A DNA stretch of 64,000 nt from Candidatus Yanofskybacteria bacterium CG10_big_fil_rev_8_21_14_0_10_36_16 (GTDB taxonomy: Bacteria; Patescibacteriota; Minisyncoccia; 2-02-FULL-40-12; IGHO2-01-FULL-4-A), in NCBI GenBank assembly GCA_002794035.1, contig PCXQ01000001.1, positions 3,256 to 67,255 of the forward strand, in the 5' to 3' direction. Both the position numbers and the translations under genes were made by a program. Shown here piece by piece: positions 33,722 through 58,859 of the stretch. Position 1 is the stretch's first letter; the number at the start of each line of letters is the position of its first letter. The notes below the pieces were generated by a model, which made no database searches, had not been told where the DNA came from, and was given only the letters and a program-made list of their open reading frames with translations.

Positions 33722-34366
33722 TTAAGAATCGTTTAATCTTTTGAGGCCCTTGGCGCTTTCAATATGTGACCTCCGGCTCTTTTTGTCCTTTATATCGGCG
33801 TTTTTGATAATGCTACAAATCTCGTCCCTTTCACTGTCAGACAATACCAAATCAGTATATTGTCTGATTTTTTCTACAGTATCCCTGCCATTACCGACTG
33901 TATCCGTACCAGTAATTTTAAGCTTATCCGCAGACGGGAAAATTATAAATGAATAAATGGGAGTATTTTGAAATCGCGGCTTTATTAGTGCCTCTATTGC
34001 TTTGGTGTGGGCGTAATTTTGCCTTAATGGATTATAGAATCTGCTCTTTCGTCTATAAATAACTTGGGTCCAGTATTGATCGCTGGCTTTACCGAAAATC
34101 CATCCAGAATAATCTTTCGTTTCAATGCAAAAAATTCCAAATCTTGAAACTATGATGTGATCAATTTGAGTTGTGCTTGTATTGCCGGTTGAAGGCAACA
34201 AAACGTCGCTTAGATTTATATACTGTTTAGGATCCAGCCCTGTCAGTTTTTTGTTTACAAATCTTTCGCCTAGCCAACCTTTCCATTGCGGAAACTTATA
34301 TTTAACCCACTGAACAATGAGATAAAGAAATCCAAACCAAATTAGTAAATATATAATGTTTTTCAA
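33722..34366 (-). CDS. Membrane-anchored NERD (nuclease-related domain) protein
   Basis: 214 aa. N-terminal TM helix, then GERFVNKKL...QIDHIIVSRFGIFCIETKDYSGWIFG...WTQ pattern typical of NERD. Confidence 0.8.
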   Translation of the reverse strand: MKNIIYLLIWFGFLYLIVQWVKYKFPQWKGWLGERFVNKKLTGLDPKQYINLSDVLLPSTGNTSTTQIDHIIVSRFGIFCIETKDYSGWIFGKASDQYWTQVIYRRKSRFYNPLRQNYAHTKAIEALIKPRFQNTPIYSFIIFPSADKLKITGTDTVGNGRDTVEKIRQYTDLVLSDSERDEICSIIKNADIKDKKSRRSHIESAKGLKRLNDS

Positions 34367-34389
34367 TTTATAGTTATTGATGTATTTAG

Positions 34390-35724: not shown

Positions 35725-35743
35725 AAATTAAAAACTTAAAAAC

Positions 35744-37531: not shown

Positions 37532-37535
37532 AAAT

Positions 37536-40217
37536 CTATTTTTCCCAAAGTCGGGCCGCTTCATCAAAGCTTTTCGGCTTCTGTGATAGCTTATCCCAAT
37601 CTTCTTGTTTAATATAAAGCATTTTGTATTTAACGTCGTTCTGAATACTATTAACATCTTTTATCCATTGTTCCAAGCGTTTTATTTTCTCAACATCGTC
37701 TAAGTCTTCGCGGCCTTTGGTTTCTATGATGTACACTTCTTTTTCTGAAACCTTTACGAAAAAGTCCGGGTAGTAATTTGAAATATCACCACTGGCATTT
37801 CGGTAATCAATCCTAAAATTAACTGCGAAGTAGTTTTTAGCATAAGAAATTATATCTTCCACTCCATCAAGAAAACCGGCAAACTCAAGTTCAAAATGCC
37901 CATCTCCAACTATTTTATTAAATGCGCTTTTCTTCGGTACAAGATATGCTTGATCCTTCACGACAAATGGTCGGCTCTTACTAATCTTAATATAATTTTG
38001 GATCTCGGCCTCGCCCTTATCTACCACGGTCAATTCGTTTATCTTCTTCTTAAATGTTTCTGTTACTGTTTTGCTGGCTTCAAGCTCTGACAAATTACGC
38101 AAAGCATTAAGATCGTCCAACTGTATTTTTTTATCAAAAAGGTTGTTTTCAATAAACTCTTTTACTTGGCCGTATAGAATATCATAACCGCTAAATAACC
38201 GAAGCTCTTTCATAATAACATTGGTAAAATACCCTATAACACTTTGGTAATCTGGTATGAAATTACTATCTAACTCTGTCTTGTGAGTTATATCACCGCT
38301 GGTAATATCCCTGAATATAATTTCGCGCTTTTCTTCTTCTGAAAACTCCTTTAATTTAACTTTCTTGTGACCAAATGTTGAAACATCAAGGTCTGAAAGG
38401 TTTTTATATTCCCGATAAATACGCGGTGTAAGAATGGGTATTTGAATATCTAACCTCGGTATATCTTTTTTGGTGTTTTCATTATCAACCTCAACAACCA
38501 AAGGAGCTTTAGGTTCTGTGCCTTCTCCCATTTTTCTGTGCTCAAGCTCAACACCTTCACTTTTAATAGATTCCACAAAATCCATAAAAGCATCTGTGCC
38601 CACTACACTAACTAATTCCGGCACTTCTTCGTTGCGATACATTCGTCTTAACCCTCTTCCAAGTGTTTGTTCTGGCAATATGTTGCTCTTTGAAGAATAA
38701 GGCCGCAATCCAACAATGGTTGTAACATTACGGACATCCCAACCTTCTTTAAGCATTAACACGGAAACTATGGCCTTATAAGGATTATCAAAATTATCAA
38801 TCTTGTTTGCTGCTTCCCGCAGCTTTTTTAATTCCTCCTCATTTTTCCCAGTTGCGCTTTCGGATATTTCACCGTTATTTTTTGTATGAATTACTAATAC
38901 AGAGTTTTTAAACTCCGGATAAGTATTTTCAAGATATTCAGCAACTTCATCACCGTTCTTAGTATCGTCGGTCATTAAAAACAAAACTGCTTTTTTGCCC
39001 AGTTTTATATGTTCATCATAAACCTTTTTCCACTCCAAATAACCGAGATGGACATAGTCCTTGTATTTCTCACTGAACTTTGAACTTTTATGCTCTTGTA
39101 GCTTGGCTCGGCTTGCAGAATCGGGCAGGACCGGACGCTTTACTACGTTTTGGTGAATGGCTTCAACCAATGGGTAATCGCTTATTGTTTGAACAAATAT
39201 AGCTCCGTTATTATGTCTTGGGGTAGCTGTTACATCAATTTGTAAAGATAATTCTTTGCCTTTCATCTTGAGACGATTGTGTATATCTTCTATGGACTTA
39301 AACCACGCTAAACGGCCATCGTGGATATGGTGCGCTTCATCATTTAGTACAACCAGCTCATCTATATCTCTAACTATTACCCCAAGATCAACTTTTGATT
39401 CATTTGTTGCGCCAACTGGTTTTTCGCCAAGAAAATATCGGGCCGTGTTTTCATCTTCAAAACTCGCAGCACTGCTATTACTCTCATAAACCCGATGAAT
39501 GTTAGTTAGAAAAATGTTTCCAGTTTTTTTAACTACACCTATTTCGTCTTGAATATGCAAAGTTAATTGAAAATCATCCCGCCAATTTTGGCCTGCAAAA
39601 CCATTATCCGGAAGTACCGGGTCTTCAAAAAATATCTTTAAGCCGTCAAAATCAGACCTGATACGGTCTAAAACAATAATGTTGGGGGTGATAACCAAAA
39701 AGTTTCGGGCTAATTTTGAATCCTCTTCATAAAGTTTATGAAAGAAGCTCCAAGCAAGAAGTAAACTTAACACCTTTGTCTTGCCGCTTCCGGTTGCCAT
39801 TTTTATTACGAAACGTAACCAGGATTCTTCAAACATTCCTGCTGAAACTGCTCCGGAACTATCAAATCTTATAAGGTCGTATTTATCTTTTACTTTTGCT
39901 ACTTCGTGGAGATAAATGGTTGTTTCTACTGCTTCTCTCTGTCCAAAATAGTATTGAAAAAGAAAGGTCTCTCCATCTGTATTTTCTCTTGGGTGGTCTA
40001 TTTTAAACCACCATTTAAGTAACGCTTTACTTGTTTCACTTGCCCCTTCATAATCAGCATCTCGCCATTCTTTGACCTTCCTACGAAGTTGATCCACTAA
40101 AGGCGGTAAAAGCCGAGCATAGCCCTGTTCTCTTAATGTCTCGTCTGCCGGAAACCACCGGAGGTCCGGGTTTAAAATCTCGTGAGGTGATTGTGGAAAC
40201 TTAGGGTGTAGTGCCAT
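37536..40217 (-). CDS. res: Type III restriction enzyme Res subunit
   Basis: 893 aa. MATGSGKTKV, LNDEAHH (DEAH), helicase C motifs, C-terminal YYPDFFV...YIIETKG PD-ExK nuclease. Confidence 0.9.
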   Translation of the reverse strand: MALHPKFPQSPHEILNPDLRWFPADETLREQGYARLLPPLVDQLRRKVKEWRDADYEGASETSKALLKWWFKIDHPRENTDGETFLFQYYFGQREAVETTIYLHEVAKVKDKYDLIRFDSSGAVSAGMFEESWLRFVIKMATGSGKTKVLSLLLAWSFFHKLYEEDSKLARNFLVITPNIIVLDRIRSDFDGLKIFFEDPVLPDNGFAGQNWRDDFQLTLHIQDEIGVVKKTGNIFLTNIHRVYESNSSAASFEDENTARYFLGEKPVGATNESKVDLGVIVRDIDELVVLNDEAHHIHDGRLAWFKSIEDIHNRLKMKGKELSLQIDVTATPRHNNGAIFVQTISDYPLVEAIHQNVVKRPVLPDSASRAKLQEHKSSKFSEKYKDYVHLGYLEWKKVYDEHIKLGKKAVLFLMTDDTKNGDEVAEYLENTYPEFKNSVLVIHTKNNGEISESATGKNEEELKKLREAANKIDNFDNPYKAIVSVLMLKEGWDVRNVTTIVGLRPYSSKSNILPEQTLGRGLRRMYRNEEVPELVSVVGTDAFMDFVESIKSEGVELEHRKMGEGTEPKAPLVVEVDNENTKKDIPRLDIQIPILTPRIYREYKNLSDLDVSTFGHKKVKLKEFSEEEKREIIFRDITSGDITHKTELDSNFIPDYQSVIGYFTNVIMKELRLFSGYDILYGQVKEFIENNLFDKKIQLDDLNALRNLSELEASKTVTETFKKKINELTVVDKGEAEIQNYIKISKSRPFVVKDQAYLVPKKSAFNKIVGDGHFELEFAGFLDGVEDIISYAKNYFAVNFRIDYRNASGDISNYYPDFFVKVSEKEVYIIETKGREDLDDVEKIKRLEQWIKDVNSIQNDVKYKMLYIKQEDWDKLSQKPKSFDEAARLWEK

Positions 40218-40218
40218 A

Positions 40219-40614
40219 TTAGGTCAATCTGTAGATATATGCGTCTTTAATAAAAATACCGTTAATGATGTTTGATTTAAATCTAATACCTGCTTTTGAC
40301 TGTTTTGATGTTTTTATCATTGTTCTCAAAAGTTTCAGAAAGTCATTATCGTGATGAAGTATTGTTATATTTGAAAGTCCGATGTCTTTTACTGTTTTTT
40401 CTTCCCCGAATTGATTGATGAAATCATTATAATTTTGCCGCGTATTTTTAATACGGTCATATTTTTTTGATGAAATTAATAATCTCCAAGCATCTGACTC
40501 GGGAACAAGTATCCAAAGAAAAACCGTTGGATTTATTTTTTGTTTATCCATCAAATCTAATAAGGTTTTTCCACTTTCAATTTTTGGTTCTTCTACCATA
40601 ATTTTTTTATCCAA
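40219..40614 (-). CDS. 131-aa orphan protein paired with HEPN (no nucleotidyltransferase motif)
   Basis: Overlaps the HEPN gene by 22 nt and ends 1 nt before the res start. No GSx10DxD MNT signature. Confidence 0.55.
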   Translation of the reverse strand: MDKKIMVEEPKIESGKTLLDLMDKQKINPTVFLWILVPESDAWRLLISSKKYDRIKNTRQNYNDFINQFGEEKTVKDIGLSNITILHHDNDFLKLLRTMIKTSKQSKAGIRFKSNIINGIFIKDAYIYRLT

Positions 40615-41030
40615 ACTAAAATACCCTTACGCCTATCTTTTATTGAGTTGATTAAAGCTTCTGCGTCAGTTTTCTTGCATATTCCATATCTGCTTTCTTC
40701 GGTCCAATCTTTAACCGTGCTCCAATTTGACTCAAAGCCCTTATCTTTGCCTGCTCTCTTATCAAAGGCCCACTTGATACCACTTACACTCAATAAGTCG
40801 TTTAAATCGTGACTATAGAGTTTCTGATAAACACTCTTTTTTGGAGGGAAGCTCTTTTCTTTGACATTTTTGCAATAGCAAGCCTTGAGGGCAAGTTCAA
40901 CGGCATAACCTGCTAAATAGTAAGCACCACTATACTCCTTATTATTAAAAAGGGTTATCGCTTCTCTGATGCGCCTCAATGCTAACTTTTTAAAATCACC
41001 GTATTCTGGATTGTCCCAAAATAAAGCCAT
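40593..41030 (-). CDS. HEPN domain protein
   Basis: 145 aa. AYYLAGYAVELALKAC...SHDLNDLL...EESRYG pattern of HEPN (PF05168-like). Confidence 0.7.
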   Translation of the reverse strand: MALFWDNPEYGDFKKLALRRIREAITLFNNKEYSGAYYLAGYAVELALKACYCKNVKEKSFPPKKSVYQKLYSHDLNDLLSVSGIKWAFDKRAGKDKGFESNWSTVKDWTEESRYGICKKTDAEALINSIKDRRKGILVWIKKLW

Positions 41031-41033
41031 ACT

Positions 41034-43283
41034 TTATATACTAATCTCAATTATTTTCATTGTATCGTTACCGAAAATATCTACGACCTTTATGGCAATT
41101 TTACGTCTGCCTTTTGGTAATTCTTTATAAGCGGTTATAAACTCAAGGTTTCTGTCCTTTTTGGTTCTAAATGATTGCCATTCGTTTTCAAAAATGTAAT
41201 CGCCGGTCCATTGTTCTTCAATTTCTTCCTTTTCGTTTTTTATAGCCACAACTTCTTTTTTGCTTTCAAAGTTAAAGTCAACGGACCAGTAATCAATCCA
41301 ATCACTCCATTTTTCAGTCAAAACATCCCTTGTAACTACACCCTCTTTGTCTTTTGAGATTTTAATAATTTTACCATTTTCTACTACAAGCTTTTTGCTG
41401 CCGTTTTTGAGGCTTTCTTCTACCTCTTTAATTGAATCTTGATTATAAAAAACTGAAAAATCAGTTAACTCAATGGCCAATGAGTTCTTTTTTATATGAG
41501 GCTTAACTTCAATGTAAGATACGTCGTGAAAAACAACTTGGTTTTTTTCTACAGCCCGTTTGTCAAATACATCTCGTGGAATATATTTAAGGGCCAAATC
41601 AACACCTTGATTTTTGGCATCTTCTTGTATTCTCGGAAATAATCCCATTTCAAACTCAAAAGCCAATATGTCTACTTTAGTTATTTTCTTTTCAACTGCT
41701 TCTTTAATTACTTCTTCAACAAATAACCGAGTAACTGGCAAGTTAATTGGGCCAACAGATACTAATCTTGCAGATTTTTTACCGAAAAAGGTTTTGAAAT
41801 TATTAATTGGTTCTGCTTTGTATGCTGACAGGATTAAAGAAACAAAATCTTTTTCTTTCTGTGCGATTTGTTTTTGCTTTTGCTCGTCCCGAAGATTGGG
41901 GTTTATACCAACGTAATGCTGCCTTTCATATTTACCAAGATTTAATACTTCAAATGCCCGATAATCTTTCCCAGTCTTTTTAAGTTCTCGTTGCACTCCA
42001 ATCATTCTCTTGCGTGTTGTGTGAATTGAGAACTTACCCAAGTCAGAACCAATCCATTTGCGGCTTAGTTTTTCAGCTGCAGCAAGGGTGGTACCAGAAC
42101 CGACAAAGAAGTCGGCAACAAGATCGTCCTCGTTTGAAGAGGCCTTTATTATGCGCTCAAGTAAGGACTCTGGTTTTTGGGTTGGATAATTATTACGTTC
42201 TTTAGCCATTGGATTAACTGGATTTATATCTAGCCAAATATCTTCAGAAACATTTCCTTTAGTATCTTCGTAAAACCTTTTTACATATGGTAACCCACTT
42301 TCAGAAAAAACAATAAGTCCCCGTTTCATTCCTTCATCTATTCTTTCTTGAGACCATATCCAGTGTTTGCCTGCCGGTGGATACAGCAACTTTTCACCGA
42401 ATTTTTTTGCTTCACCTTGTCCCTTTTGAGTAAAATCAGCCAAAGAATATCTTTTTCCCGTTTGCTCATCGGTGTACCTGTAATGAGTTTTTAATAATTT
42501 TTCCGATTTCGGTAAAAATTGAGTATTAAAAATAGTCTTCTCTTTATCTTTTGAATAAAAGAAGACTGTATCATGTACGTTTGGATAAGTTTTTGACTGT
42601 GGCTTAGCCGATGTCAGTTTTTGCCAAATAATTTCATTTTTAAAATTATTAGTTCCAAATATCTCATCTAATACCAACCTCATGTAGCTGTTAACCCTCC
42701 AATCACAATGTACATAAATACTCCCGTTTGCGGCCAACAAATCTCGCATCAGTGAAAGTCGCTCGTAAATCATAGAGATAAAACTATCTGCTCCCTTGCC
42801 CCAAGTATCCCGATATGCTAATTCCTCTAATACTGTTGGTTGTTTCTTAAACTCTTCGCCCCCAACCTCAATATCCATAGAAAAATCTGCCCCAACATCA
42901 AAAGGCGGATCAATGTAGATAAGTTTAATGCCCCCATTAGCTTCAATTTCTTCTCGTAGGGGTCCATTTTTTAAGCTTGATAGGATTAGTTTGTTGTCAC
43001 CCCAAATAAGTTTATTAGTCCAGCCCTTGATTTGGCGGCCGCGCTGGTCAAAATCAAACAACACCTGCTGGCGCTTTACTTCCTTCTCACTTCTCGGCTC
43101 ATCAACCTGTTCAATAACCTGAAATGGCAAGATAACATTGGTGACTTCATTTGTCTTGCCGTTCCAGACAAGCTCAACCTCTCGTTTGTCCTCAAACAAA
43201 AGAAACCGGTACTTATCGGGAAGAGGTTTACCGGCTTCAATAAACTTTATAGCATCGCGTTTTTCATTGTCAGTTAGATCCAT
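41034..43283 (-). CDS. mod: Type III R-M Mod subunit (beta-class N6-adenine/N4-cytosine DNA methyltransferase)
   Basis: 749 aa. IYIDPPFDVGADF (motif IV) precedes DFFVGSGTTLAAA (motif I). C-terminal extension of about 330 aa. Confidence 0.9.
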   Translation of the reverse strand: MDLTDNEKRDAIKFIEAGKPLPDKYRFLLFEDKREVELVWNGKTNEVTNVILPFQVIEQVDEPRSEKEVKRQQVLFDFDQRGRQIKGWTNKLIWGDNKLILSSLKNGPLREEIEANGGIKLIYIDPPFDVGADFSMDIEVGGEEFKKQPTVLEELAYRDTWGKGADSFISMIYERLSLMRDLLAANGSIYVHCDWRVNSYMRLVLDEIFGTNNFKNEIIWQKLTSAKPQSKTYPNVHDTVFFYSKDKEKTIFNTQFLPKSEKLLKTHYRYTDEQTGKRYSLADFTQKGQGEAKKFGEKLLYPPAGKHWIWSQERIDEGMKRGLIVFSESGLPYVKRFYEDTKGNVSEDIWLDINPVNPMAKERNNYPTQKPESLLERIIKASSNEDDLVADFFVGSGTTLAAAEKLSRKWIGSDLGKFSIHTTRKRMIGVQRELKKTGKDYRAFEVLNLGKYERQHYVGINPNLRDEQKQKQIAQKEKDFVSLILSAYKAEPINNFKTFFGKKSARLVSVGPINLPVTRLFVEEVIKEAVEKKITKVDILAFEFEMGLFPRIQEDAKNQGVDLALKYIPRDVFDKRAVEKNQVVFHDVSYIEVKPHIKKNSLAIELTDFSVFYNQDSIKEVEESLKNGSKKLVVENGKIIKISKDKEGVVTRDVLTEKWSDWIDYWSVDFNFESKKEVVAIKNEKEEIEEQWTGDYIFENEWQSFRTKKDRNLEFITAYKELPKGRRKIAIKVVDIFGNDTMKIIEISI

Positions 43284-43371: not shown

Positions 43372-43785
43372 CTAAACGAGAAATTGAGCGACAAACCAGA
43401 TGCCGGCAGTAATTAAAAACCATATCAACTGATTGGCTTCCCTAAAATCTCCGGAGCGGTAGTAGCGGCCAACTTGGGTTACGGTAAATATCGCGGCAGT
43501 CATCGGGATAAAGTTAAATGGAATATCAAATCTAAAGGACACGAGATAATATACGATTATTAAAGCTACCGCTTCGGAAAAACCCGAAAAGCGTGATTTT
43601 AAAATATCGCTATGTTTATCTAACAACCCTTTGAATGGGGCATAAATGAACATAGCAATAATTGGACTAATGGCTGCGATATAAAACAATGAGAATAAGG
43701 CCCATAAGAATGGCAAAAATATAAAAGAAGAAATAATAACTATACCCCATAGCAGTAAACTAATTTTTGATTTTATTACATCCAT
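43372..43785 (-). CDS. Small four-helix membrane protein, unknown function
   Basis: Start moved to MDVIKSKISLLLWG (137 aa). 88 nt upstream of mod on the same strand. Confidence 0.55.
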   Translation of the reverse strand: MDVIKSKISLLLWGIVIISSFIFLPFLWALFSLFYIAAISPIIAMFIYAPFKGLLDKHSDILKSRFSGFSEAVALIIVYYLVSFRFDIPFNFIPMTAAIFTVTQVGRYYRSGDFREANQLIWFLITAGIWFVAQFLV

Positions 43786-43810
43786 AAAATTACAAAACCC
43801 GCCGCTAGGC

Positions 43811-43897
43811 GATGGATTTCTCCACCTGTTACCCTTTCGGGTAACAACCACTGCTGGTGCTCCTAAACGACGGGTTTAGTACCCAGCAGTGGTTTTT
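43811..43897. promoter_or_regulatory. Cluster of GC-rich hairpins (candidate structured leader or small RNA)
   Basis: gatgga-tttc-tccacc, gttaccc-tttc-gggtaac (GAAA loops on the minus strand), and a 10-bp stem ccactgctgg/ccagcagtgg enclosing ctaaac-gacgg-gtttag, then TTTTT. Confidence 0.4.
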
Positions 43898-44012: not shown

Positions 44013-44768
44013 ATGGCCTTAATTAACGACAAACAATTTAAACAATTTTTAGAACTCCTAATAAATAAGGTTGAATTAAGAAACGATATTCATTTGGGAA
44101 TACAATACCGTGAATTAATCCAAATATTTTTAGATGATAACGCTATCAAAGATTATTTGCGCTATTCTGAAAATAAGAAGTTGTTAAAATTAATAGGCAT
44201 ATCTAAATATAAAGAAAAGGAAGATCCTTACCCTGATGATTATTATATAAACGAGATAACGCCTAACAATGATTTTATAGGCCCGAAAAGATATTATGCC
44301 GTAAAGAGGTATATACGGTATAATTTCTACCCAAAGGACAACTTTATACTTGATGTGTCTGATAAAAAAATTAAAGGTTTTTATAAGCAGTATCAAAAAG
44401 AAGGTCCGGGGCAAGACCCAAAACGGCTAATTTCCAAAAATAAAAGTGCTTATTTTTATAAATCAAAACAAATAGTTTTTGACAGTGAAGAAACTGACTA
44501 CTTCAGAGTATTTGATGTCCTTTACGAAAATAGTGGGCAAGACAACTTTTTGTCATATGAAAATATAGATAAAGAAATGGTCCGAAGGGGCTCGCCAAAA
44601 CTTATAGATGATCAACAAAAAATTAAACGTATTCATAATGCAGTTAAGAACTTATTTTTATATTCTCGTTGCGGAAGTGAAAAGCTAAAAAATACTACGC
44701 CCAATAAAACTGAACTAATAAAAAAGGTTAGAGGGAGAGGGTGTGTTTTCAATAACCCTCTAATTTAA
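44013..44768 (+). CDS. Hypothetical protein, possible C-terminal winged-helix
   Basis: 251 aa. C-terminal KKVRGRGCVFNNP resembles OmpR/PhoB-type wing endings. Confidence 0.45.
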   Translation: MALINDKQFKQFLELLINKVELRNDIHLGIQYRELIQIFLDDNAIKDYLRYSENKKLLKLIGISKYKEKEDPYPDDYYINEITPNNDFIGPKRYYAVKRYIRYNFYPKDNFILDVSDKKIKGFYKQYQKEGPGQDPKRLISKNKSAYFYKSKQIVFDSEETDYFRVFDVLYENSGQDNFLSYENIDKEMVRRGSPKLIDDQQKIKRIHNAVKNLFLYSRCGSEKLKNTTPNKTELIKKVRGRGCVFNNPLI

Positions 44769-44899
44769 TAAGTTATCTCTCAATTTCTTGTGGACAGCCA
44801 AATATCGGCTGTCTTTTTTTCTTTTTTTACTTGGTTTTAGCGGCCAAAGAGATAAACGGAGAAATTAAAAGATATTAAATATTGATTCAAAATTAAATT

Positions 44900-45526
44900 A
44901 TGCAACCAATAATTAAAACTTTTACTGAACCGGATTGGGATTATCTGTTTTGGACTTGGGATTTAGAAAAACAATGGCAGGAGTCATTGCCAAGGCCAAC
45001 TGAACGAGAGTTGTTAGGTATTTTCCCGGAAGCAAAAAAGATATTGCCGGCATTATTAAGGGACTGGCAACAAAGAAAAAGTGAATTAACCAAAGAACTG
45101 GCTCGGAAATTAAAAATAGTAAAACTTGGCGCGGATAGCGACAGCGAAAGATTTTTCTGGACTGAATGGCTGAAAACAAAATATTTAGGAGAAATTACTG
45201 AAATCGTTAATGACATTAAAAAGTTCAAGAGAATGATGGCTATATCAAACAACCGGGGCCGAGCCTTACGAAGCGAAGAGTCATTGCAAAAGGCTTTAGC
45301 TGTGCCAATAGCATCGGCTATCCGAATTAAACTAAGAAAATTGGGTAATAAACTTGTTGGGCTGTGTCCCCTACATAACGAGAGTAACCCATCATTTTAT
45401 ATCTATACCGATACTAATTCCTTTTATTGCTACGGATGTGGCAAGGGTGGAAATGTAATCAACTTGGTTAGATTTCTACACGATTACACATTCCCAGAAG
45501 CAATAAAGTATTTAACTAATTTATAA
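44900..45526 (+). CDS. CHC2 zinc-finger protein (DnaG-primase-type finger)
   Basis: 208 aa. CPLHNESNPSFYIYTDTNSFYCYGCGKGGNVINLVRFL. Confidence 0.65.
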   Translation: MQPIIKTFTEPDWDYLFWTWDLEKQWQESLPRPTERELLGIFPEAKKILPALLRDWQQRKSELTKELARKLKIVKLGADSDSERFFWTEWLKTKYLGEITEIVNDIKKFKRMMAISNNRGRALRSEESLQKALAVPIASAIRIKLRKLGNKLVGLCPLHNESNPSFYIYTDTNSFYCYGCGKGGNVINLVRFLHDYTFPEAIKYLTNL

Positions 45527-45609
45527 CTTTTGTTTCTTGTTCGGGCTCTTGGCAAAGGCCATAGTAAGCTCCGGCCAGGAGCTCAAACAAGAAACGCGGA
45601 GCTTACTTT

Positions 45610-47154
45610 ATGTCAAACAACCAAAACAATGAAAAACAAAATAAGGAAGGGCGGAAACCACAAGCAACCAAAATCGTAGAATTGGTCAGTGAAAGCAACA
45701 TAACCCTATTCCATAACGAGTTAAAACAGCCCTATGCCTATATTGAAATAAATAACCATAGCGAAATATGGCCCTGTGAAAGCAGGCAATTTAAGGACTG
45801 GCTGGGACACATATTTTGGAATAACGAAGGAAAATCTGCCTATCCTAATGCGATAAACGGTGCGCTATCAACATTAAGAGCCAAGGCGCTTTACGAAGGA
45901 CAGAAGTATAAACTAAACAACCGAGTAGCAATCAAAGACGGTGCAATTTGGTATGACCTTTCTAACAATAACTGGGAAGCGGTCCGTATAAGCAAAAATG
46001 GATGGCGAATCATAGGCAACCCTCCTATCATATTTCAGCGCTTTTCTCATCAGCAAGAACAATTAACCCCGGTACCAGAAGGAAATATAAAGGATGTCTT
46101 ATCGCTAATCAATGTAAAAAAAGAACACCAACTGCTTTTATTGGTTTACTTAGTATCCTGTTTTATTCCGGACTTTCCCCATCCGATATTGGTGGTTCAC
46201 GGGCCTCAAGGCTCATCAAAATCAATGCTATCCAAAGTTCTTAAAAGCTTAGTTGATCCATCTGTATTAGAAACTTGCGACTTCCCTGCAAGTAAAGCGG
46301 AACTGGCTCAAATACTATCCCACCATCACTATGTTGTCTTTGATAATCTCTCGTACCTATCAGATTCAAATTCCGACATTCTATGCCGTGCTGTTACCGG
46401 AGGAGGATTTTCAAAACGGGAACTCTACACGAACGACGAAGACGTAATACACCTATTTAAGCGTTGCATAAACCTCAACGGCATAAATCCGGTGGCAACA
46501 AAACCAGACCTGCTAGAACGAAGCATATTACTGGAATTAGAAAGGATACCCAATGAAAAAAGGAAAAAAGAGACAGATATTTTGCAGCAATTTGAAACCA
46601 AGAGACCAGAAATATTAGGGGCAATCCTAAACACAGTTGCCAAAGCAATGGAGATTAAAGAATCAATAAAAGTAACTGGATTGCCGCGGATGGCGGATTT
46701 TACAGAGTGGGGTTGCGCTATCGCTGAAGCAATAGGACATCCAAAAGAAGAGTTTTTATCTTCTTATTTTGAAAACATAAAGTCGCAAAATGACCAGGTT
46801 ATTTATGATAGCCCTGTTTGCAGTACTCTTTTGAGCTTAATGAAGGAGCGAGAGCAATGGAATGGAACAGCAACGCAACTTTTATCTGAGTTAATTGAAG
46901 AGGCGGAAAGGTTAAATATCAACACAAAAGAAAAAGGCTGGCCCAAATCAGCAGCGTCATTAAGCGGTAAATTAAATAACTATAAAACCAATCTTGAAGA
47001 AGCCGGTATAAAAATAAATCGTTTTGATGAAAACAGGCAAAGACAATTATCTATCAGCAATGATTCTGCTATTGAGAGCCAGGCCGGCAACGGATTAGCC
47101 GAAGAAGACGATAGAGACGCTGCAACGCTCTCAACGCTCTTTCCCGAGCATTAA
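45610..47154 (+). CDS. P-loop NTPase, putative element replication helicase (phage/plasmid primase-associated type)
   Basis: 514 aa. VVHGPQGSSKSMLSKVL Walker A and VVFDNLS Walker B-like. Follows the CHC2 gene. Confidence 0.55.
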   Translation: MSNNQNNEKQNKEGRKPQATKIVELVSESNITLFHNELKQPYAYIEINNHSEIWPCESRQFKDWLGHIFWNNEGKSAYPNAINGALSTLRAKALYEGQKYKLNNRVAIKDGAIWYDLSNNNWEAVRISKNGWRIIGNPPIIFQRFSHQQEQLTPVPEGNIKDVLSLINVKKEHQLLLLVYLVSCFIPDFPHPILVVHGPQGSSKSMLSKVLKSLVDPSVLETCDFPASKAELAQILSHHHYVVFDNLSYLSDSNSDILCRAVTGGGFSKRELYTNDEDVIHLFKRCINLNGINPVATKPDLLERSILLELERIPNEKRKKETDILQQFETKRPEILGAILNTVAKAMEIKESIKVTGLPRMADFTEWGCAIAEAIGHPKEEFLSSYFENIKSQNDQVIYDSPVCSTLLSLMKEREQWNGTATQLLSELIEEAERLNINTKEKGWPKSAASLSGKLNNYKTNLEEAGIKINRFDENRQRQLSISNDSAIESQAGNGLAEEDDRDAATLSTLFPEH

Positions 47155-47186
47155 TAAAACAAGGGGTACTACCCATAACTTAAGTT

Positions 47187-47558
47187 ATGCAGTGTAAATA
47201 CATAAAAAATAATAAAAAACAGTGCGGAGCAAACGCAATGCTCAAAAACAGTTATTGCTTTTATCATAATCCGGATGTCAAAAAAGCAGATAAAAAAGAG
47301 GCTCAATCAAGAGGTGGTAAGGGCAATAAAAGTAGAGTTAGTGAAACTCTTCCGCCAATAACTTTCAAGAAGTCCCGAAACGTCGTCGGATTGCTTGAGG
47401 AAACTATTAATTTGGTTAGGGCAGGAAAAATGGAAATACGAGTTGCTAACTGCATAGGATACTTGTCGGGCCACATCATCAAGGCAATTGAGGTTTCAGA
47501 GCTTACGCAACGCCTACAGGAAGTTGAGAAAAAAATAGAAATAAAATGGCAGGAATAA
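47187..47558 (+). CDS. Hypothetical protein (mobile-element small ORF)
   Basis: 123 aa, basic N-terminus with Cys pairs. Overlaps the next ORF by 13 nt. Confidence 0.5.
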   Translation: MQCKYIKNNKKQCGANAMLKNSYCFYHNPDVKKADKKEAQSRGGKGNKSRVSETLPPITFKKSRNVVGLLEETINLVRAGKMEIRVANCIGYLSGHIIKAIEVSELTQRLQEVEKKIEIKWQE

Positions 47559-47836
47559 CTTTATCTACAATAAAAAGATTAGAGAAAAAAGCCGAAGAAT
47601 TAAGGGCGGCAAATCCAATAGTGGACCGGGTCATAACTGTTCCTTGGCCTTTAGAGATTTATAGCGAAGAGGGAGAAAGATTTATCCAAGAGGAAATTGA
47701 GCGGCGAAATCAAATTAGGAAAGAATCCGGTATTTATTCCGAAGGTCCTTTCTACGTGATTATGCCGGGTAGAATGCCTCAATGGGTGGCCGAAGAAGAA
47801 TGGAGGAAACAAGAAGAGGCAGAGAAACTTAAATAA
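47546..47836 (+). CDS. Hypothetical protein (mobile-element small ORF)
   Basis: 96 aa, charged. Translationally coupled to the upstream ORF. Confidence 0.5.
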   Translation: MAGITLSTIKRLEKKAEELRAANPIVDRVITVPWPLEIYSEEGERFIQEEIERRNQIRKESGIYSEGPFYVIMPGRMPQWVAEEEWRKQEEAEKLK

Positions 47837-47866
47837 TTTCCAATTTTAAGTTATAATGAGTAAACT

Positions 47867-47959
47867 ACACAAAAACCCAAATAGTAGTCAAGACCTTGAA
47901 CATAACGAGGGGCAACGAGGGTTTTTGTGTAGTAACAAAACTTCTTGTCGTTGCCCCTC
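47867..47959. promoter_or_regulatory. Two interlocked perfect 12-bp inverted repeats upstream of the recombinase gene
   Basis: A: acacaaaaaccc (47867-47878) pairs with gggtttttgtgt (47919-47930). B: gaggggcaacga (47907-47918) pairs with tcgttgcccctc (47948-47959). Confidence 0.6.
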
Positions 47960-48058
47960 TTTGTGCTATAAGGCGTCCTCTGTTTTAGATCCCAAGTCAT
48001 TAGAACAAGCATATTTTAGAATTTTTGACTGGGTTTTAGAAAACAAGGACAGTAAATT

Positions 48059-49702
48059 ATGGAAAAAACAAAAAGATTAGCTGCTCTATATGGTAGAGTA
48101 AGCACATCAAACCAAGAGGACCAGAAAACAATTGAGAACCAAGTTGATGCTCTTAATGAGTTAGCGAACAAAAATGATTTTACCATTGTTCAAGAATATA
48201 AAGATGATGGTTGGTCCGGAGATATTTTAGCCAGACCGGCCCTTGATCAGCTAAGGCAAGATGCAAAAAGTAAAATATGGGATACTTTGTTAATTTACGA
48301 TCCGGATAGGTTGGCCCGAAGATACTCATACCAGGAGTTGATTATGGACGAGTTAAAAGAGGCCGGGGTTGAAGTGATATTTATTACTGTATCTGCACCA
48401 AAAAATCCTGAAGATAAGATTTTGCATGGAGTTCGGGGGTTATTTGCAGAATATGAGAGGGTACGGATTACAGAACGTTTTCGTTTAGGAAAGCTCCGCA
48501 AGGTAAAAAACGGCCATGTATTAACAACGGAAGCCCCTTATGGCTATAACTACATAAGAGGAGACAGAGAAAGGCAAATACACGGTTATTATAAAATTAA
48601 CCCCGAGGAAGCAGAGGTTGTAAAAAAGATTTTTCAGTGGATTGGGGATGAAAAACTAAATATCAGAGCTGTTGTAAGAAAATTAAAAGAAGTAGGAATT
48701 AAACCAAGAAAAGCCAAAAGAGGTGTTTGGGCTACGAGCACAATATCAACAATGCTAAAAAACGGGGCTTATATTGGAGAGGCACATTGGGGTAGTTCGT
48801 ATGCAGTAGTACCCGAAAATCCAATCAAAAAAGAGAAGTATAAAAAAATGAAAAAAAGTAGCCGGAGAATAAAACCGAAAGAAGATTGGATAGCATCTAA
48901 AATACCTGTACCTGCCATAATAACCAAGGAGCTGTTTGCAAAGGTACAAAAACAACTAAAAACAAATTCCTCTCTATGTCCAAGAAATAAAAAATATACA
49001 TATCTACTAGGCGGCAAAATACATTGTGTATGCGGTAAAACCAGAAGTGGAGTAGGCCCACAGCGCGGTAAGCATCTATACTATCGCTGTAATGACAGGA
49101 TTTATAGCTTTCCTATACCTCCTACCTGTAAAGAACAAGCCATCAATGCAAGGATAGCTGATGAATTAGTTTGGAATAAAATAGCAAATCTTATGAGTTC
49201 ACCGGAATTGTTAAAAAACCAAGCAGAAAAATGGTCTGATTCTCGCAAGGTGGGGGCAAGATCTCATATTGGCGATATAGAAACAACAGAAAAGGAAATA
49301 TTAAAGTTAAAAGCACAGGAGGATCGCTATAATAAAGCATATGGTGCCGGGGTGTTTGATATAAACCAATTAAAAGAGTATGTTGCTCCGGTAAGAGAAC
49401 GAATAGAATTGTTAAAATCCCAAATAGTCAAAATCAAACAGGAAGAAAACCAGTCGCAAGACAATGCCCTCCCCTCGCTAGATGAAATCCGGTCATTTAC
49501 GAAAGTAACAAGAAATGCTTTATTTAACTTGAATTTTGAAATGAAAAGAGCCACAATTTTAAATGTTATAGATAAAATTATCGGTACACAAAAACAATTG
49601 AAGGTGTATGGTCAAGTGCCGATAACACAAAATTATGTCACATACAAAACTAGCTATCGGTATAGTCGGGTTGCCCAATGTTGGAAAATCAACATTATTT
49701 AA
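48059..49702 (+). CDS. Large serine recombinase (integrase)
   Basis: 547 aa. N-terminal resolvase domain (AALYGRVSTSNQ), recombinase domain, Cys-rich zinc ribbon (CVCG...YYRC), coiled coil. The last 68 nt overlap ychF. Confidence 0.9.
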   Translation: MEKTKRLAALYGRVSTSNQEDQKTIENQVDALNELANKNDFTIVQEYKDDGWSGDILARPALDQLRQDAKSKIWDTLLIYDPDRLARRYSYQELIMDELKEAGVEVIFITVSAPKNPEDKILHGVRGLFAEYERVRITERFRLGKLRKVKNGHVLTTEAPYGYNYIRGDRERQIHGYYKINPEEAEVVKKIFQWIGDEKLNIRAVVRKLKEVGIKPRKAKRGVWATSTISTMLKNGAYIGEAHWGSSYAVVPENPIKKEKYKKMKKSSRRIKPKEDWIASKIPVPAIITKELFAKVQKQLKTNSSLCPRNKKYTYLLGGKIHCVCGKTRSGVGPQRGKHLYYRCNDRIYSFPIPPTCKEQAINARIADELVWNKIANLMSSPELLKNQAEKWSDSRKVGARSHIGDIETTEKEILKLKAQEDRYNKAYGAGVFDINQLKEYVAPVRERIELLKSQIVKIKQEENQSQDNALPSLDEIRSFTKVTRNALFNLNFEMKRATILNVIDKIIGTQKQLKVYGQVPITQNYVTYKTSYRYSRVAQCWKINII

Positions 49703-50783
49703 TGCCCTGACTAAAAAACAAGTAGATATTTCTAATTATGCTTTTACAACGATCGACCCAAATGTCGGGGTTGTTGGGGTACCTGATGAAAGATTAGATA
49801 AATTGGCCAAGATGTCTAATTCCGAGAAAATTACCCCTACGGCCATTGAATTTATTGATATCGCAGGTCTTATTAAGGGCGCAGCAGAAGGAGAAGGGTT
49901 GGGTAATAAGTTTTTAGCTAATATTCGTGAAGTAGATGCCATTGCTCACGTAGTAAGGGTTTTTCCCGCCGGAGGCGGGTCCGCTCATGGCGGAGAAATA
50001 CAGCATGTGCACAAAAATATTGATCCGGTAAATGATATTGAAATAATCAATCTGGAATTAATAATGGCTGATTTGCAGACTATTGAAAGAAGATTAAGGG
50101 AGACAAAAGGCAATGACCCTGCCAAGACTTTTGAAAAAGAGGTGTTAAACAAACTTAAAGAAAATTTAGAAAAAGAAATTCTTGCAATAAACATTTTATT
50201 TACTGAAAAAGAACAAGAAATTGTTCGTGGGTTACATCTTTTAACCAACAAAAAAGTTATATATGCCTTTAATGTGGCAGAACAACAGTTGAAAGACAAT
50301 TGGCAGCCTAACAAAGAATTGCTTGATGTTATAAAAAACAATGAATTTGTTGTTGTCTCAAATACGTTTGAACAATTGCTATCTGAATCAGACCCTGAAG
50401 AAAAAAAGGTTTATCTTGAAGAACTAGGTTTAAAATATAGCGGTTTAGATCAGCTTATAAAAAAAGGATACAAGGCTCTTGGTTTAATTACATTTTTGAC
50501 AACTGGTCCTAAAGAAACACGTGCTTGGACAGCTCATGAGGGTGATTCTATCCCCCGTGCGTCATCTGCTATCCATACTGATTTTGAAGAAAAATTTATT
50601 AAAGCCGATGTGATAAATTGGCAAACACTTTTAGATGTAGCGGTCCATTCGGCGGATTCGGGTTCCTCATCACAAGCAGGCTCAGGCCAAGCTTGGTCTA
50701 AAGCAAAAGAGCTTGGCAAGATGAGAACAGTTGGTAAAGATTACATAATTCAAGAAGGTGATGTAGTCGAGATTAAAATTTGA
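49635..50783 (+). CDS. ychF: Ribosome-binding ATPase YchF
   Basis: 382 aa. GIVGLPNVGKSTLFNALT, DIAGLIKGA, C-terminal TGS-like domain. Two GC-rich in-frame insertions. Confidence 0.95.
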   Translation: MSHTKLAIGIVGLPNVGKSTLFNALTKKQVDISNYAFTTIDPNVGVVGVPDERLDKLAKMSNSEKITPTAIEFIDIAGLIKGAAEGEGLGNKFLANIREVDAIAHVVRVFPAGGGSAHGGEIQHVHKNIDPVNDIEIINLELIMADLQTIERRLRETKGNDPAKTFEKEVLNKLKENLEKEILAINILFTEKEQEIVRGLHLLTNKKVIYAFNVAEQQLKDNWQPNKELLDVIKNNEFVVVSNTFEQLLSESDPEEKKVYLEELGLKYSGLDQLIKKGYKALGLITFLTTGPKETRAWTAHEGDSIPRASSAIHTDFEEKFIKADVINWQTLLDVAVHSADSGSSSQAGSGQAWSKAKELGKMRTVGKDYIIQEGDVVEIKI

Positions 50784-50841
50784 TCTTGACTACATCACTG
50801 TAAGAAGGCCGAACATTTTCTTGGTTTTTTGTAGAAAATGT

Positions 50842-53974: not shown

Positions 53975-54382
53975 ATGGGTTGGATAATTAAAATCGTTGC
54001 TTTTGTTGCCGTGGTTTCTTTAACTAGTGGTTTTGTTATAACTAAAGTTCCTGATCTAAAGCAAAAAGTGGTTGAATATATAAACCCAGCAGAAAAAGAA
54101 AGACGTATATTGGGAGAACTGGACCAGGTGCTTGAAGATTTGGAAGATACAGCAATGCAAGTAAGCGATTTTGACAGCCCTGAAGAGGTTCGGGAAAAAA
54201 TTTCTAAGGCGGCAGAACTTATAAACAAGGCTCAAGATTTAAGATTGCAGGCTCAGGAAGCAAATGATAAGGATCAAGGTCTTGTAAGATCCGGAATGAC
54301 TCGAATTATTGATTCCTTTACTAGCAAGACAATTCCTGAAATTACAGATGAGTTGAAAGCCGAGATATGCAAAGAGCAGTAG
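53975..54382 (+). CDS. Membrane-anchored coiled-coil hypothetical protein
   Basis: 135 aa. N-terminal TM helix, then a charged helical region. Confidence 0.5.
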   Translation: MGWIIKIVAFVAVVSLTSGFVITKVPDLKQKVVEYINPAEKERRILGELDQVLEDLEDTAMQVSDFDSPEEVREKISKAAELINKAQDLRLQAQEANDKDQGLVRSGMTRIIDSFTSKTIPEITDELKAEICKEQ

Positions 54383-54464
54383 TAAGTAGCATGTAGCAAG
54401 TATTATGCAAAAAAATCTAGATTTTAATCTAGATTTTTTATTCTTGCTACTGACTACTGGCTAC

Positions 54465-54763
54465 TAAAACAATAGTGGTGGGATTTTTGAGTCTACTAAA
54501 AATATTATAAGTCCGATTATCGCGCCAACGGCCGATATCAACACAAAAGTCGCGGGCCCCTCCCTCGCTGGCTAGGGATCCACTCCCGCTCCTTGAAACC
54601 TTGCGGTTTCAATACTTCCACTATGGGGAAACACCCAGTTTCCCCAGCCCCCCTTCTGATTTCGGATGATATCAGTTTTTTGTTGATTAAAACAATAGTG
54701 GTGGGATTTTTGAGTCTACTAAAAATATTATAAGTCCGATTATCGCGCCAACGGCCGATATCA
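54465..54763. repeat. 76-bp perfect direct repeat of the mraY 3' end flanking a 147-bp GC-rich insert
   Basis: Copies at 54465-54540 and 54688-54763. The insert (54541-54687) contains hairpins gaaacc-ttgc-ggtttc and ggggaaac-accca-gtttcccc. Confidence 0.85.
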
Positions 54764-55760
54764 TCCAAAATCTCATGGTGATTTGGGTTTCATGCCAGCC
54801 CTTGGCCTCGAAATGGTGGTGTATGGGAGTAGATAGGAAAATCTTTTTGCCTCGTAATTTTTTTGAGGTTATTTGAACTATCACAGATAAAGATTCACCA
54901 ACAAACACTAGGGCTATAATTGGTAAAAGCAAAGCGGTATTGGTTAGCATGGCAATAATACCCAGAACAACCCCCAAAGACATTGACCCCGTGTCGCCCA
55001 TAAAAAATTTGGCAGGATAAATATTGAACCACAAAAATGCTACAAGAGCTCCCATGATGGATGCTATAAACACAACGAGATCCATCCTTTCTTGAACAAA
55101 AGCTATTGCGCCATAAGCGGCAAACATGGTTAAGAAGGTTCCACCAGCAAGTCCATCAAGGCCATCAGTTTCATTTGCTGAAAATGCAGTCGCTACGATA
55201 ATAAATATAAAGAATGGAATGTACCACCACCCTATTGCCATGTCTCCTGCAAAAGGTATGTTTATTGAATTAAAGTCCAATTTAAAGAAGAACCACCATG
55301 CACCTCCTGTAGCAACAAGGAGGTAAAGACCTATTCTGTGGCGCATTTTAAGGCCTCCTCCGTTAGGTCCTATTCGAAATACTCCAAAAAGATCATCTGC
55401 CAACCCAAACATTGCAGCAACAAAAAGAGCGCCTAATGGCAACAGTGTCTGTGCACGAGATAGAAAATTCCAATCAGACCAAGTTCCGTTGTAAAGGCTG
55501 GCAAAAAAAGAAAAACCAAGAGTTACGATTATTACAGTTGCCCAAACTACTACCCCGCCCATAGTGGGTGTTCCTTCTTTTTTTTTGTGCAGTTTATTAA
55601 AAATGGGTGCCGAATCGCTTCCTTTTAATTGCTTGCCAAGATTGTTTTTTTGGATAACTTTATTCCATGCGGGTGTTAATATTATTGCAATAAAAAAAGA
55701 TAGTGTCGCCACCACGAAAACTCTGACAACGTTAAAAACAGTAAATGTTTCGCCTATCAA
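54687..55760 (-). CDS. mraY: Phospho-N-acetylmuramoyl-pentapeptide transferase
   Basis: 357 aa. Typical MraY motifs (NETDGLDGLA, GDTGSMSLG, PIHHHFE). Confidence 0.95.
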   Translation of the reverse strand: MIGETFTVFNVVRVFVVATLSFFIAIILTPAWNKVIQKNNLGKQLKGSDSAPIFNKLHKKKEGTPTMGGVVVWATVIIVTLGFSFFASLYNGTWSDWNFLSRAQTLLPLGALFVAAMFGLADDLFGVFRIGPNGGGLKMRHRIGLYLLVATGGAWWFFFKLDFNSINIPFAGDMAIGWWYIPFFIFIIVATAFSANETDGLDGLAGGTFLTMFAAYGAIAFVQERMDLVVFIASIMGALVAFLWFNIYPAKFFMGDTGSMSLGVVLGIIAMLTNTALLLPIIALVFVGESLSVIVQITSKKLRGKKIFLSTPIHHHFEAKGWHETQITMRFWMISAVGAIIGLIIFLVDSKIPPLLF

Positions 55761-58418: not shown

Positions 58419-58859
58419 TTAAATGAGGTTTAATAATTGTGTCGGGCTATCTTTTAAATACATGCCCCTTATCTCCTTCTTTATTTTGTCTCTTAATTGT
58501 TTGGGCAACTCATTTTTAAACTGGTTGATAATCTCGGGTGCACAAAATAGATATATTTCGTTTATGGCTCCTTTTTTGTCTACTTCTAATATATAGCTAG
58601 CTGCTTTTTTTATAAACTCTTTATGTATCTTTTCTTTTGGTATTTCGCGGGAAGAACCGCTTGAAATAATCCCAGCAGTTTTTGATCTAATTTCTGAAAA
58701 CCCTTCGTTATCTGAATATTTGGGAGTTATTACTTCTATCTTATTTACTTCCTCTATTAAACCATTCTCTGCTAAATAAAAAATGCCGCTTTGATTGCCG
58801 AAAACAGCTAATAGTGTTGGGTTATTTTTAAATTGTTGAAATTGTTTTGGAATTTGCAT
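58419..58859 (-). CDS. Hypothetical protein
   Basis: 146 aa. No confident motif. Confidence 0.45.
   Translation of the reverse strand: MQIPKQFQQFKNNPTLLAVFGNQSGIFYLAENGLIEEVNKIEVITPKYSDNEGFSEIRSKTAGIISSGSSREIPKEKIHKEFIKKAASYILEVDKKGAINEIYLFCAPEIINQFKNELPKQLRDKIKKEIRGMYLKDSPTQLLNLI

Follow-up and report, generated by a model that had tools for sequence, protein, structure and literature searches.

The mraY locus of Candidatus Yanofskybacteria bacterium CG10_big_fil_rev_8_21_14_0_10_36_16 raises the question of how the 3' end of a gene came to be present twice, with a short insert of different composition between the two copies, and what kind of unit this insert might be. The sequence-only reading of the window (the whole analysed DNA stretch of 64,000 nucleotides) had described a perfect 76-bp duplication of the mraY tail around a GC-rich structured insert, and had recognized in it the layout left behind by a 3'-end-targeting integrative element with a tiny payload, provided that an assembly loop could be excluded. 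The features of the locus, in window coordinates, are the following.

54687-55760, minus strand: mraY, 357 aa, the target gene (ORF; PF00953), with its last 27 codons inside the right-hand repeat
54757-54772, minus strand: site A, the partner of the arm; sense strand GATTTTGGATGATATC, codons R-F-W-M-I
54688-54770, minus strand: gene-attached tail copy (R and site A), perfect up to 54763
54674-54687, minus strand: spacer, not conserved across the family; here a second, degenerate arm-like segment, 12/13 complementary to the A* of the orphan
54658-54673, minus strand: arm A', complementary to the target; plus strand GATTTCGGATGATATC; begins directly after the conserved ..CCCCYTTCTG end of the core
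54549-54657, minus strand: conserved core, with P1 at about 54552-54589 (GC-rich), P2 at 54593-54612 and P3 at 54624-54646; left end GTCGC
54465-54548, minus strand: orphan mraY tail copy (R and mutated A*), with its own stop TAG at 54464-54466
54410-54439, no strand: AT-rich perfect palindrome with A/T runs on either side, between mraY and the convergent 135-aa gene (53975-54382)

The duplicated mraY tail and its insert

The exact 76-bp repeat (54465-54540 = 54688-54763) cannot be of chance origin. If one gap is allowed, the duplication covers 54465-54548 versus 54688-54770 (83/84 bp in the local alignment; 83 nt and 96% in the repeat search), and the 2-3 differences between the two copies are all located in the last 8 nt beside the insert. 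The stop codon of mraY, TAA, is composed of 54688-54689 from the repeat and 54687 from the insert. The 147 bp between the repeats contain no credible ORF, have a GC content of 0.54-0.60 against 0.29-0.45 in the flanks, and fold into four hairpins (z = -3.2 on the plus and -2.2 on the minus strand); on the plus strand they end in a terminal hairpin followed by T6. Coordinates, GC content and fold agree with the earlier description, as does the hairpin with its T-run. The hairpins had been seen in that reading, but the most telling part of the insert had been missed, namely a 16-nt arm (54658-54673) complementary to the mraY codons at 54757-54772.

The complementarity between arm and site A is 15/16, the sole mismatch being a G·U on the sense strand, and the distal end of site A coincides with the end of the duplication within 2 nt. 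The spacer forms the outer helix of the predicted fold, and a by-eye comparison revealed a similar situation in locus L006. Since the A:A' helix is absent from the minimum free energy (MFE) fold of the sense transcript, this fold carries no structural claim. The linkers of the core are pyrimidine-rich on the plus strand and purine-rich on the sense strand (AGAAGGGG, GGAAG, AAGGAG). The palindrome at 54410-54439 is likely the native bidirectional terminator of mraY and of the 135-aa gene; it was not called by a simple terminator scan because it has too few G-C pairs. Homologues of MraY with 71-77% identity come from Cand. Yanofskybacteria/Paceibacterota.

Exact repeats on both sides of an insert with foreign composition classically warn of an assembly artefact (de Bruijn loop, chimera) or of mis-joined foreign DNA, and 76 equals k-1 at k = 77. 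However, the window contig corresponds to ena:ERZ27293400:k141_1232592, a MEGAHIT product with a final k of 141, which exceeds and spans the 76-bp repeat, therefore the concern about k-1 is void. Four further contigs were reached through the neighbouring 135-aa protein: the identical 518 nt, including both R copies and the insert, are present on ena:ERZ27293414:k141_1027575 and on jgi Ga0210050_1069517, while two other JGI contigs reach 60 nt far into the left repeat and break off there, and this is the assembler behaviour expected at a true repeat. The final k, the same structure in three samples and the two contigs breaking at the repeat refute the assembly loop. As roughly 40 loci with differing local repeats, from various assemblers, have the same architecture, we consider an artefact hardly credible.

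A family of hairpin-rich elements with a target-complementary arm

The search of the insert beyond the window, which had been suggested by the sequence-only reading, proved to be rewarding: the 21-nt hairpin P3 was found in 50 other loci, as a 22-mer match on 13 JGI metagenome contigs and as a 21-mer match in 37 GTDB genome stretches. All records that carry a group name belong to the Patescibacteria (a few GTDB records say only 'bacterium'), and the hosts include Parcubacteria groups, Saccharibacteria, Doudna-, Uhr-, Kaiser-, Portnoy-, Nealson-, Azam-, Zambryski- and Wildermuthbacteria. The copies originate from SPAdes, MEGAHIT and IDBA-type assemblies, and several genomes possess 2-3 of them. 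L032 has three copies in 8 kb of the str/S10 region, following rpsJ, fusA and rpsG (1459-1550, 3563-3652 and 6074-6166), all in the sense of the genes; their P3 variants (GGGGAGAC.., GGGAAAAC..) indicate that the exact 21-mer does not cover the whole family. The window core is a member with nhmmer E = 3e-18 and stands alone there, since no further family copy was detected in the 64 kb by a pattern search or by nhmmer --max. These tiny, non-coding, hairpin-rich elements of the CPR/Patescibacteria have apparently not been described before.

Alignment of 46 distinct copies revealed a common core of about 100 nt with the consensus, in order, ..CTCCTTrrAACC-loop-GGTTyyAA (P2), an optional hairpin, CTTCCnCnn, GGGGAAACACCCAGTTTCCCC (P3) and gaCCCCyTTCTG. 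The left end of the element, (G)TCGC.., abuts the left tail copy. Compensatory changes, the mark of a structured RNA or of a folded single strand, were found in P2, in the closing pair of P3 and in the arm-target helices: three pairs of P2 covary with 3-4 Watson-Crick pair types each, and P3 is invariant except for its covarying closing pair (C-G in 34 sequences, U-A in 11). Given these covarying helices, the peptide frame that runs through the core (..KPxGFxxSxLGKHPVSPSPLL) was regarded as a trivial by-product of nucleotide conservation. Two loci have a more complicated build. In L038 (2655-2878, minus strand) two family members stand in tandem, the second one representing a divergent subfamily (CGGGAAACTACCGTTTCCCG) with its own arm. 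The duplication in L034 (minus orientation, about 2290-2630) takes in the last 11 nt of the core (GACCCCCTTCT) and the arm region, which suggests a rearrangement, in tandem or secondary; in addition, a separate 50-nt hairpin insertion is present in the left copy.

On the strand that carries GGGGAAACACCCAGTTTCCCC, the order is nearly always orphan tail, core of about 100 nt, arm of 11-23 nt, variable spacer and intact gene tail. Read in the sense of the gene, this means the gene, site A, the rest up to the stop, the spacer, arm A', the core (AGAAGGGG, P3, GGAAG, P2, optional P2b/P1, ..GCGAC), a second tail starting from A, and the native downstream DNA. The succession of gene with tail copy, payload, second tail copy and native terminator, as it was first read from the window, recurs in about 40 independent loci. 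The right-hand tail copy is always part of an intact gene. The spacers are variable and often or sometimes contain a terminator upstream of the arm. The flanking direct repeats consist of local sequence, are 9 to 84 bp long, and vary in identity from perfect or almost perfect pairs (72/72 in L006, 37/37 in L007/L008, 21/21 in L041, 40/41 in L018) to diverged pairs elsewhere.

The arm begins 0-2 nt past the core, and its reverse complement occurs as a site within the right-hand copy. This target has its far end 0-3 nt from the end of the duplication in protein genes and 4-8 nt from it in tRNAs. In 41 of the 46 distinct loci the arm-target complement exceeded the maximum of 20 shuffles. The targets among protein genes are mraY (twice), rpsI (about 10 loci), rpsJ, rplR, rpmG, rpsG, fusA, secG and pgk, together with genes for a Ctp peptidase, PolX and a peptide-binding protein; among tRNA genes they are those for Tyr, Phe, Glu, Gly, Thr, Ala, Ile, Leu and Trp. 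In L013 the element occupies the same mraY codons as in the window, and there the sequence is different and the arm matches it, i.e. the arm co-varies with the target. One MAG contains three near-identical cores at tRNA-Phe, -Gly and -Thr, and each arm matches its own T-arm. The pairing is also intact at loci with a diverged orphan tail (16/16 in L046, 10/11 in L039). Among the 27 mismatches between arm and target, 13 form G·U pairs on the gene-sense strand and one forms such a pair on the other strand: the 13 A·C against 1 G·T seen on the alignment strand place the wobbles on the opposite, gene-sense strand. This bias argues that selection has acted on the pairing within a folded sense strand, be it RNA or single-stranded DNA.

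The sense orientation dominates at the 3' ends of genes and tRNAs. The exceptions are L015, L027 and L049, which are antisense at 5' gene starts, and about 8 copies whose arm pairs in a local hairpin and in which a duplication was undetected. Repeated tRNA 3' ends start from the T-loop (L021, L029, L030, L033, L036, L044, L047, L051). The orphan tRNA fragments of L021, L029, L030, L033, L036, L047 and L051 share the same T-loop change, whatever the tRNA (GTTCGA to GTGAGA in the sense strand, TCGAAC to TCTCAC in the plus strand), which may mark the end of the element or the crossover region. Hairpins spanning the stop codon occur in L032 and L042, and also at ychF in the window, where the core is missing. 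This last one, at 50761-50802, is a 15-bp hairpin with one G·U on the sense strand, in which the last six codons pair with the sequence after the stop; it is followed by TGTAAGAAGG, resembling the start of the family core (AGAAGGGG). It may represent a core-less relative or a footprint.

The two tails and the empty sites

At the diverged loci the differences between the two tail copies are distributed over codon positions 1/2/3 as 19/14/61, and 52 of the codon changes are synonymous versus 25 non-synonymous (9/0 in L039, 7/0 in L046 and 18/3 in the fusA tail of L032). The two terminators of L021 differ by compensatory changes. The stop codon is always kept at the same place in both copies, while its identity varies, and in 11 of 14 protein-gene loci the homology ends at most 2 nt from the stop. 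Judged from these patterns, neutral decay of an orphan would not yield such synonymous-biased differences, and the tails look like two once-functional alleles. This would fit if the element brought along the tail of an earlier host, or if one allele had been replaced through homologous recombination with anchors in both gene and core.

Other loci carry a different signature. The homology continues past the gene end by 9 nt in L011, by 26 nt in L022 (with identical 12 nt beyond the stop) and by 11 nt of the tRNA trailer in L036; these loci and the perfect pairs, including that of the window, fit duplication in situ, spread within a population or gene conversion. In the window and in L018, L027 and L049 the differences cluster at the core-proximal junction, and the three inner-edge differences of the window repeat could be expected both where a conversion tract ends and at a junction prone to errors. 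In the window and in L006 the perfect repeat ends inside the stop codon and unrelated DNA follows; to account for this, one needs gene conversion or else a mechanism able to measure as far as the stop.

Relatives of the mraY locus show the site in its empty state. L059, with 73% amino acid identity in MraY, has the same synteny, an identical 16-nt site A and TAG as native stop codon; in L059 as in L060 the intergenic region is short, and core, arm and orphan are all missing from it. Relatives with the same target site being empty, the element reads as an insertion and not as an ancestral feature. The TAG of the window orphan is identical with the stop of L059, and the terminator-like palindrome comes after it. 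Together with the synonymous-biased differences and the insert-free relatives, this supports the distinction of an attached tail and a displaced old one. No filled/empty polymorphism was seen inside one population. An identical MraY is also encoded on a 92.8-kb JGI contig that is outside the P3 22-mer matches.

The loci L052-L054 gave no significant match to the core. The closest relative of MraY is in L052 (77% amino acid identity), and this locus lacks the core. It nevertheless contains, 20 nt past the mraY stop (2040-2080), the segment ATCATCCAAAATC, which is complementary to its own codons GATTTTGGATGAT and sits in the loop of a small GCCGGGG/CCCCAGC hairpin, with no core and no orphan tail. 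Arms may therefore persist, or arise, without a core; the arm-only state of L052 either was left by an element since lost or indicates that an arm can occur with no core beside it. L053 and L054 possess a weaker arm-like version (GATTACCCAAAG) that fits the 'WVI'-type mraY better than their own.

Readings of the element and their significance

Neither an accompanying enzyme nor a known family was found. Rfam gave no match in the insert (E <= 10), in the window (gathering thresholds) or in seven other loci (E <= 1), and group I/II introns, small ribozymes and HEARO/omega-RNA were rejected, their covariance models remaining without match. Blastn of the insert against phage and plasmid collections yielded nothing but one 30-nt chance match, and IMG/VR scans with the P2 27-mer, the P3 21-mer and a degenerate P3 pattern gave no match. 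Reverse transcriptase, tyrosine integrase, transposase and TnpB, as well as the tnpA, tnpB, iscB and IS110 Pfam domains, were absent from the 30 window ORFs (of 54) that were scanned. The neighbours in other loci are housekeeping genes; those beside 'standalone' copies are unrelated ones, so that a conserved neighbour as autonomous partner was dismissed, and an autonomous copy was seen neither in any family locus nor in IMG/VR. Literature searches with the core sequence (as DNA or RNA, either strand) returned one unrelated match only, and nothing pertinent came from searches by topic (CPR, mobile elements, duplications, RNA motifs). A paper on group I introns in Patescibacteria tRNAs does not mention duplications or such elements (PMC13011429).

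Some other regions of the window were noted in the course of these searches. A putative integrated element (44013-49702) adjoins ychF about 5 kb from the mraY insert, and no link between the two was found. It contains two ORFs that match no Pfam family, a DnaG-type Zn-ribbon protein (44900-45526) and an unrelated-looking large serine recombinase (48059-49702; Resolvase, Recombinase and Zn ribbon); the end of the recombinase and the called start of ychF (49635) overlap. At the edge of a putative island a LOOT RNA was detected (RF03000; 43811-43936, minus strand; 86 bits, E = 7e-15), overlapping the ORF 43372-43851; LOOT RNA is a structured RNA of which the function is not known. The minus strand of 33722-43283 holds a defence-island-like cluster with a NERD nuclease, a PIF1-like helicase, GmrSD, a ResIII helicase with a TnsA-like endonuclease domain and an N6/N4 DNA methylase. 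A 146-aa protein (58419-58859, minus strand) has weak Host_attach / baeRF_family12 matches (release-factor-like fold).

The family shares traits with several known systems and differs from each of them. 3'-end-targeting tyrosine-integrase islands and prophages, as well as CIMEs, likewise leave a gene with its tail, the element and the displaced tail as a direct repeat, with T-loop crossovers in tRNAs and tail pairs which look like two once-functional alleles; however, our family has no integrase or ORF, its payload is 110-170 nt with a covarying hairpin core, it bears a target-complementary inverted arm, and one core serves dozens of unrelated targets. The attP(+) of CTX-phi (IMEX) and the integron attC resemble it in their A' ... 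A segments about 100 nt apart, with a stem that could mimic a duplex target, and in strand-specific pairing; those systems use fixed sites (dif, attI) with XerCD and IntI, whereas the stem of the family changes with every target, which argues against a fixed site of the dif/attI type. Group II introns (EBS/IBS), the omega-RNA of IS200/IS605 elements with TnpB/IscB and the bridge RNA of IS110 also combine a structured scaffold with an adjacent short target-complementary segment and tolerate wobble on one strand, but the family has no Rfam match, intron domains, tnpB, iscB or IS110 gene, its core is far smaller, and a duplication of 20-85 bp of target sequence is foreign to those elements.

Long, variable target duplications are known in the IS1634/IS1549 group, and with this group and MITEs the family has in common the long variable direct repeats, the small non-coding nature and the multiple copies in some genomes. 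In contrast to MITEs and DDE insertion sequences it has neither shared terminal inverted repeats nor a fixed short target duplication (the repeats are 9-84 bp), its right end is the core ..TTCTG with a locus-specific arm, and the limits of the repeat are tied to site A and the stop codon. REP/BIME/REPIN sequences are similarly GC-rich hairpins just past stop codons, intergenic in operons; the core of our family is much longer and phylum-wide, and REPs have no tail duplication or target-complementary arm. For non-LTR/SINE-like elements using target-primed reverse transcription, the perfect repeats and the sense-strand G·U bias would fit, while the synonymous-biased tails and the lack of a reverse transcriptase among the scanned ORFs do not. 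SRP RNA, tmRNA, RNase P, 16S 3'-end mimicry, EGS/RNase P substrates, group I-like IGS/splicing and translational bypass were weighed as well and are, as we take it, without support. The combination of a conserved structured core, a locus-specific arm and a duplicated tail was not found for any mobile element, RNA family or att site. The element works in the manner of a known kind, which restores the gene end upon integration, and it differs in being a structured, guide-like, protein-less unit of about 150 nt that is phylum-wide. Of the integrative element proposed at the outset, the layout with an attached and a displaced tail has stood, the accompanying integrase has not appeared, and the tiny payload turned out to be no remnant of a larger island: what the phylum-wide family conserves as its unit is this payload, 110-170 nt long and without ORF.

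We propose, with a probability of about 0.5, that these are non-autonomous tail-replacing (or tail-duplicating) insertion elements, the site of which is set by arm pairing on the sense strand. Integration would take place at the edge of site A, inside the terminal 20-90 nt of a tRNA gene or of a gene that is conserved and strongly expressed; the target gene would stay intact because a complete tail remains attached, and the other tail copy would be orphaned in front of the native terminator. A:A' pairing in the folded sense strand, RNA or single-stranded DNA, would specify the site or maintain the structure. As the element has no ORF, the enzyme must come in trans. Ordinary homologous recombination might spread it between lineages since conserved gene sequence is present on both sides, and gene conversion between the tails would keep some pairs identical and would explain the perfect 76 bp of the window. 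The data establish the family and its architecture, the complementarity of arm and target with its strand bias, the sporadic presence and the duplication. We infer that the element is mobile, and likewise which of the two tails would have arrived with it. The arm could plausibly be a structural helix of a co-transcribed RNA; it is also possible, on a tentative view, that it acts as a guide. The attached copy keeps a perfect site A, therefore a simple model in which a guide cuts empty sites would target its own locus. A stronger version, which we find doubtful, is a protein-less, programmable, tail-replacing mobile RNA/DNA with a co-transcribed scaffold of about 100 nt and an 11-23 nt arm, driven by an enzyme in trans (it would be a reverse transcriptase, nickase or recombinase) or by its own catalysis. 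The complete tail would keep the essential gene alive, in natural analogy to a guide-plus-recoded-rescue cassette, and the unit would be re-targetable to tRNAs, r-protein genes, fusA and mraY.

Several other explanations were weighed against this tail-replacing element. A host-beneficial, cis-acting RNA module is unlikely: here a structure in the 3'-UTR or between genes, transcribed together with highly expressed genes, would clamp the end of the ORF with its arm and bind a conserved factor (ribosome, RNase or other protein) with its purine-rich, SD/GGA-like core, serving the stability, processing or translational control of an mRNA or tRNA precursor, and the duplication would be a by-product of its arrival. 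It would account for the wobble bias of the sense strand, for pairing long maintained beside the diverged orphans of L046 and L039, for the position after r-protein genes inside operons (L032), for the stop-spanning hairpins of L032, L042 and core-less ychF, and for the fact that P3 and the sequence flanking it are extremely conserved among CPR lineages. It is opposed by the sporadic presence among close relatives, by the terminator that is often situated in the spacer upstream of the arm, by the antisense copies at 5' starts, and by the duplicated tails, which a regulatory role leaves unaccounted for. Duplication of the target in situ, by an arm-directed nick at the edge of site A and another near the stop followed by fill-in or SINE-like target-primed reverse transcription, would make both tails host-derived and identical at birth, since the host's own tail is duplicated. 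The perfect or nearly perfect recent copies, the homology past the gene end in L011, L022 and L036, the differences gathered at the core-proximal junction as if it were error-prone (window, L018, L027, L049), a G·U bias suiting RNA:DNA pairing and the re-programmed arms within one genome speak for this, but orphan decay cannot give 65% third-position differences, the 52:25 ratio and the compensatory terminators of L021. As its guide must already match each new target, and no reverse transcriptase was among the 30 scanned window ORFs, we regard it as quite improbable.

It is very improbable that the structure is the scar of an integrase-borne island at a gene 3' end, that is, a CIME-like attL-attR remnant or an attP-only mini-circle. 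Direct repeats made of a gene's 3' end, be it a tRNA gene or a protein gene, belong to this picture, and insert plus repeat, about 220-250 bp, have the size of a complex attP; the tRNA crossovers lie in the T-loop, which many tyrosine integrases reportedly use. However, 0 of about 50 loci have an island or integrase between the repeats and the same short core is the whole payload; moreover, the covarying core hairpins indicate a folded single strand rather than duplex protein-binding arms, and we know of no attP that includes a target-specific inverted arm. Finally, a direct repeat of a gene 3' end with a structured spacer recalls the TR/VR pair of diversity-generating retroelements (DGRs), in which CPR genomes are said to be rich. 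The 76 bp are identical including all adenines, the few differing bases are not adenine-specific, the 30 scanned window ORFs include no reverse transcriptase, and the targets are essential enzymes, r-proteins and tRNAs. Simple slippage, in turn, cannot import a conserved 100-nt core, and we give practically no credit to either origin.

With about 50 loci, empty-site relatives and defined junctions, the family is a concrete, testable object. If the proposed reading is true, it explains recurrent contig breaks, mis-annotated small ORFs and pseudo-tRNA ends in CPR MAGs, and a possible new route to programmable insertion would be at hand. The genomes of CPR/Patescibacteria are reduced and are thought to be poor in classical insertion sequences; they would nevertheless hold widespread miniature elements which insert inside the ends of essential genes without killing them.
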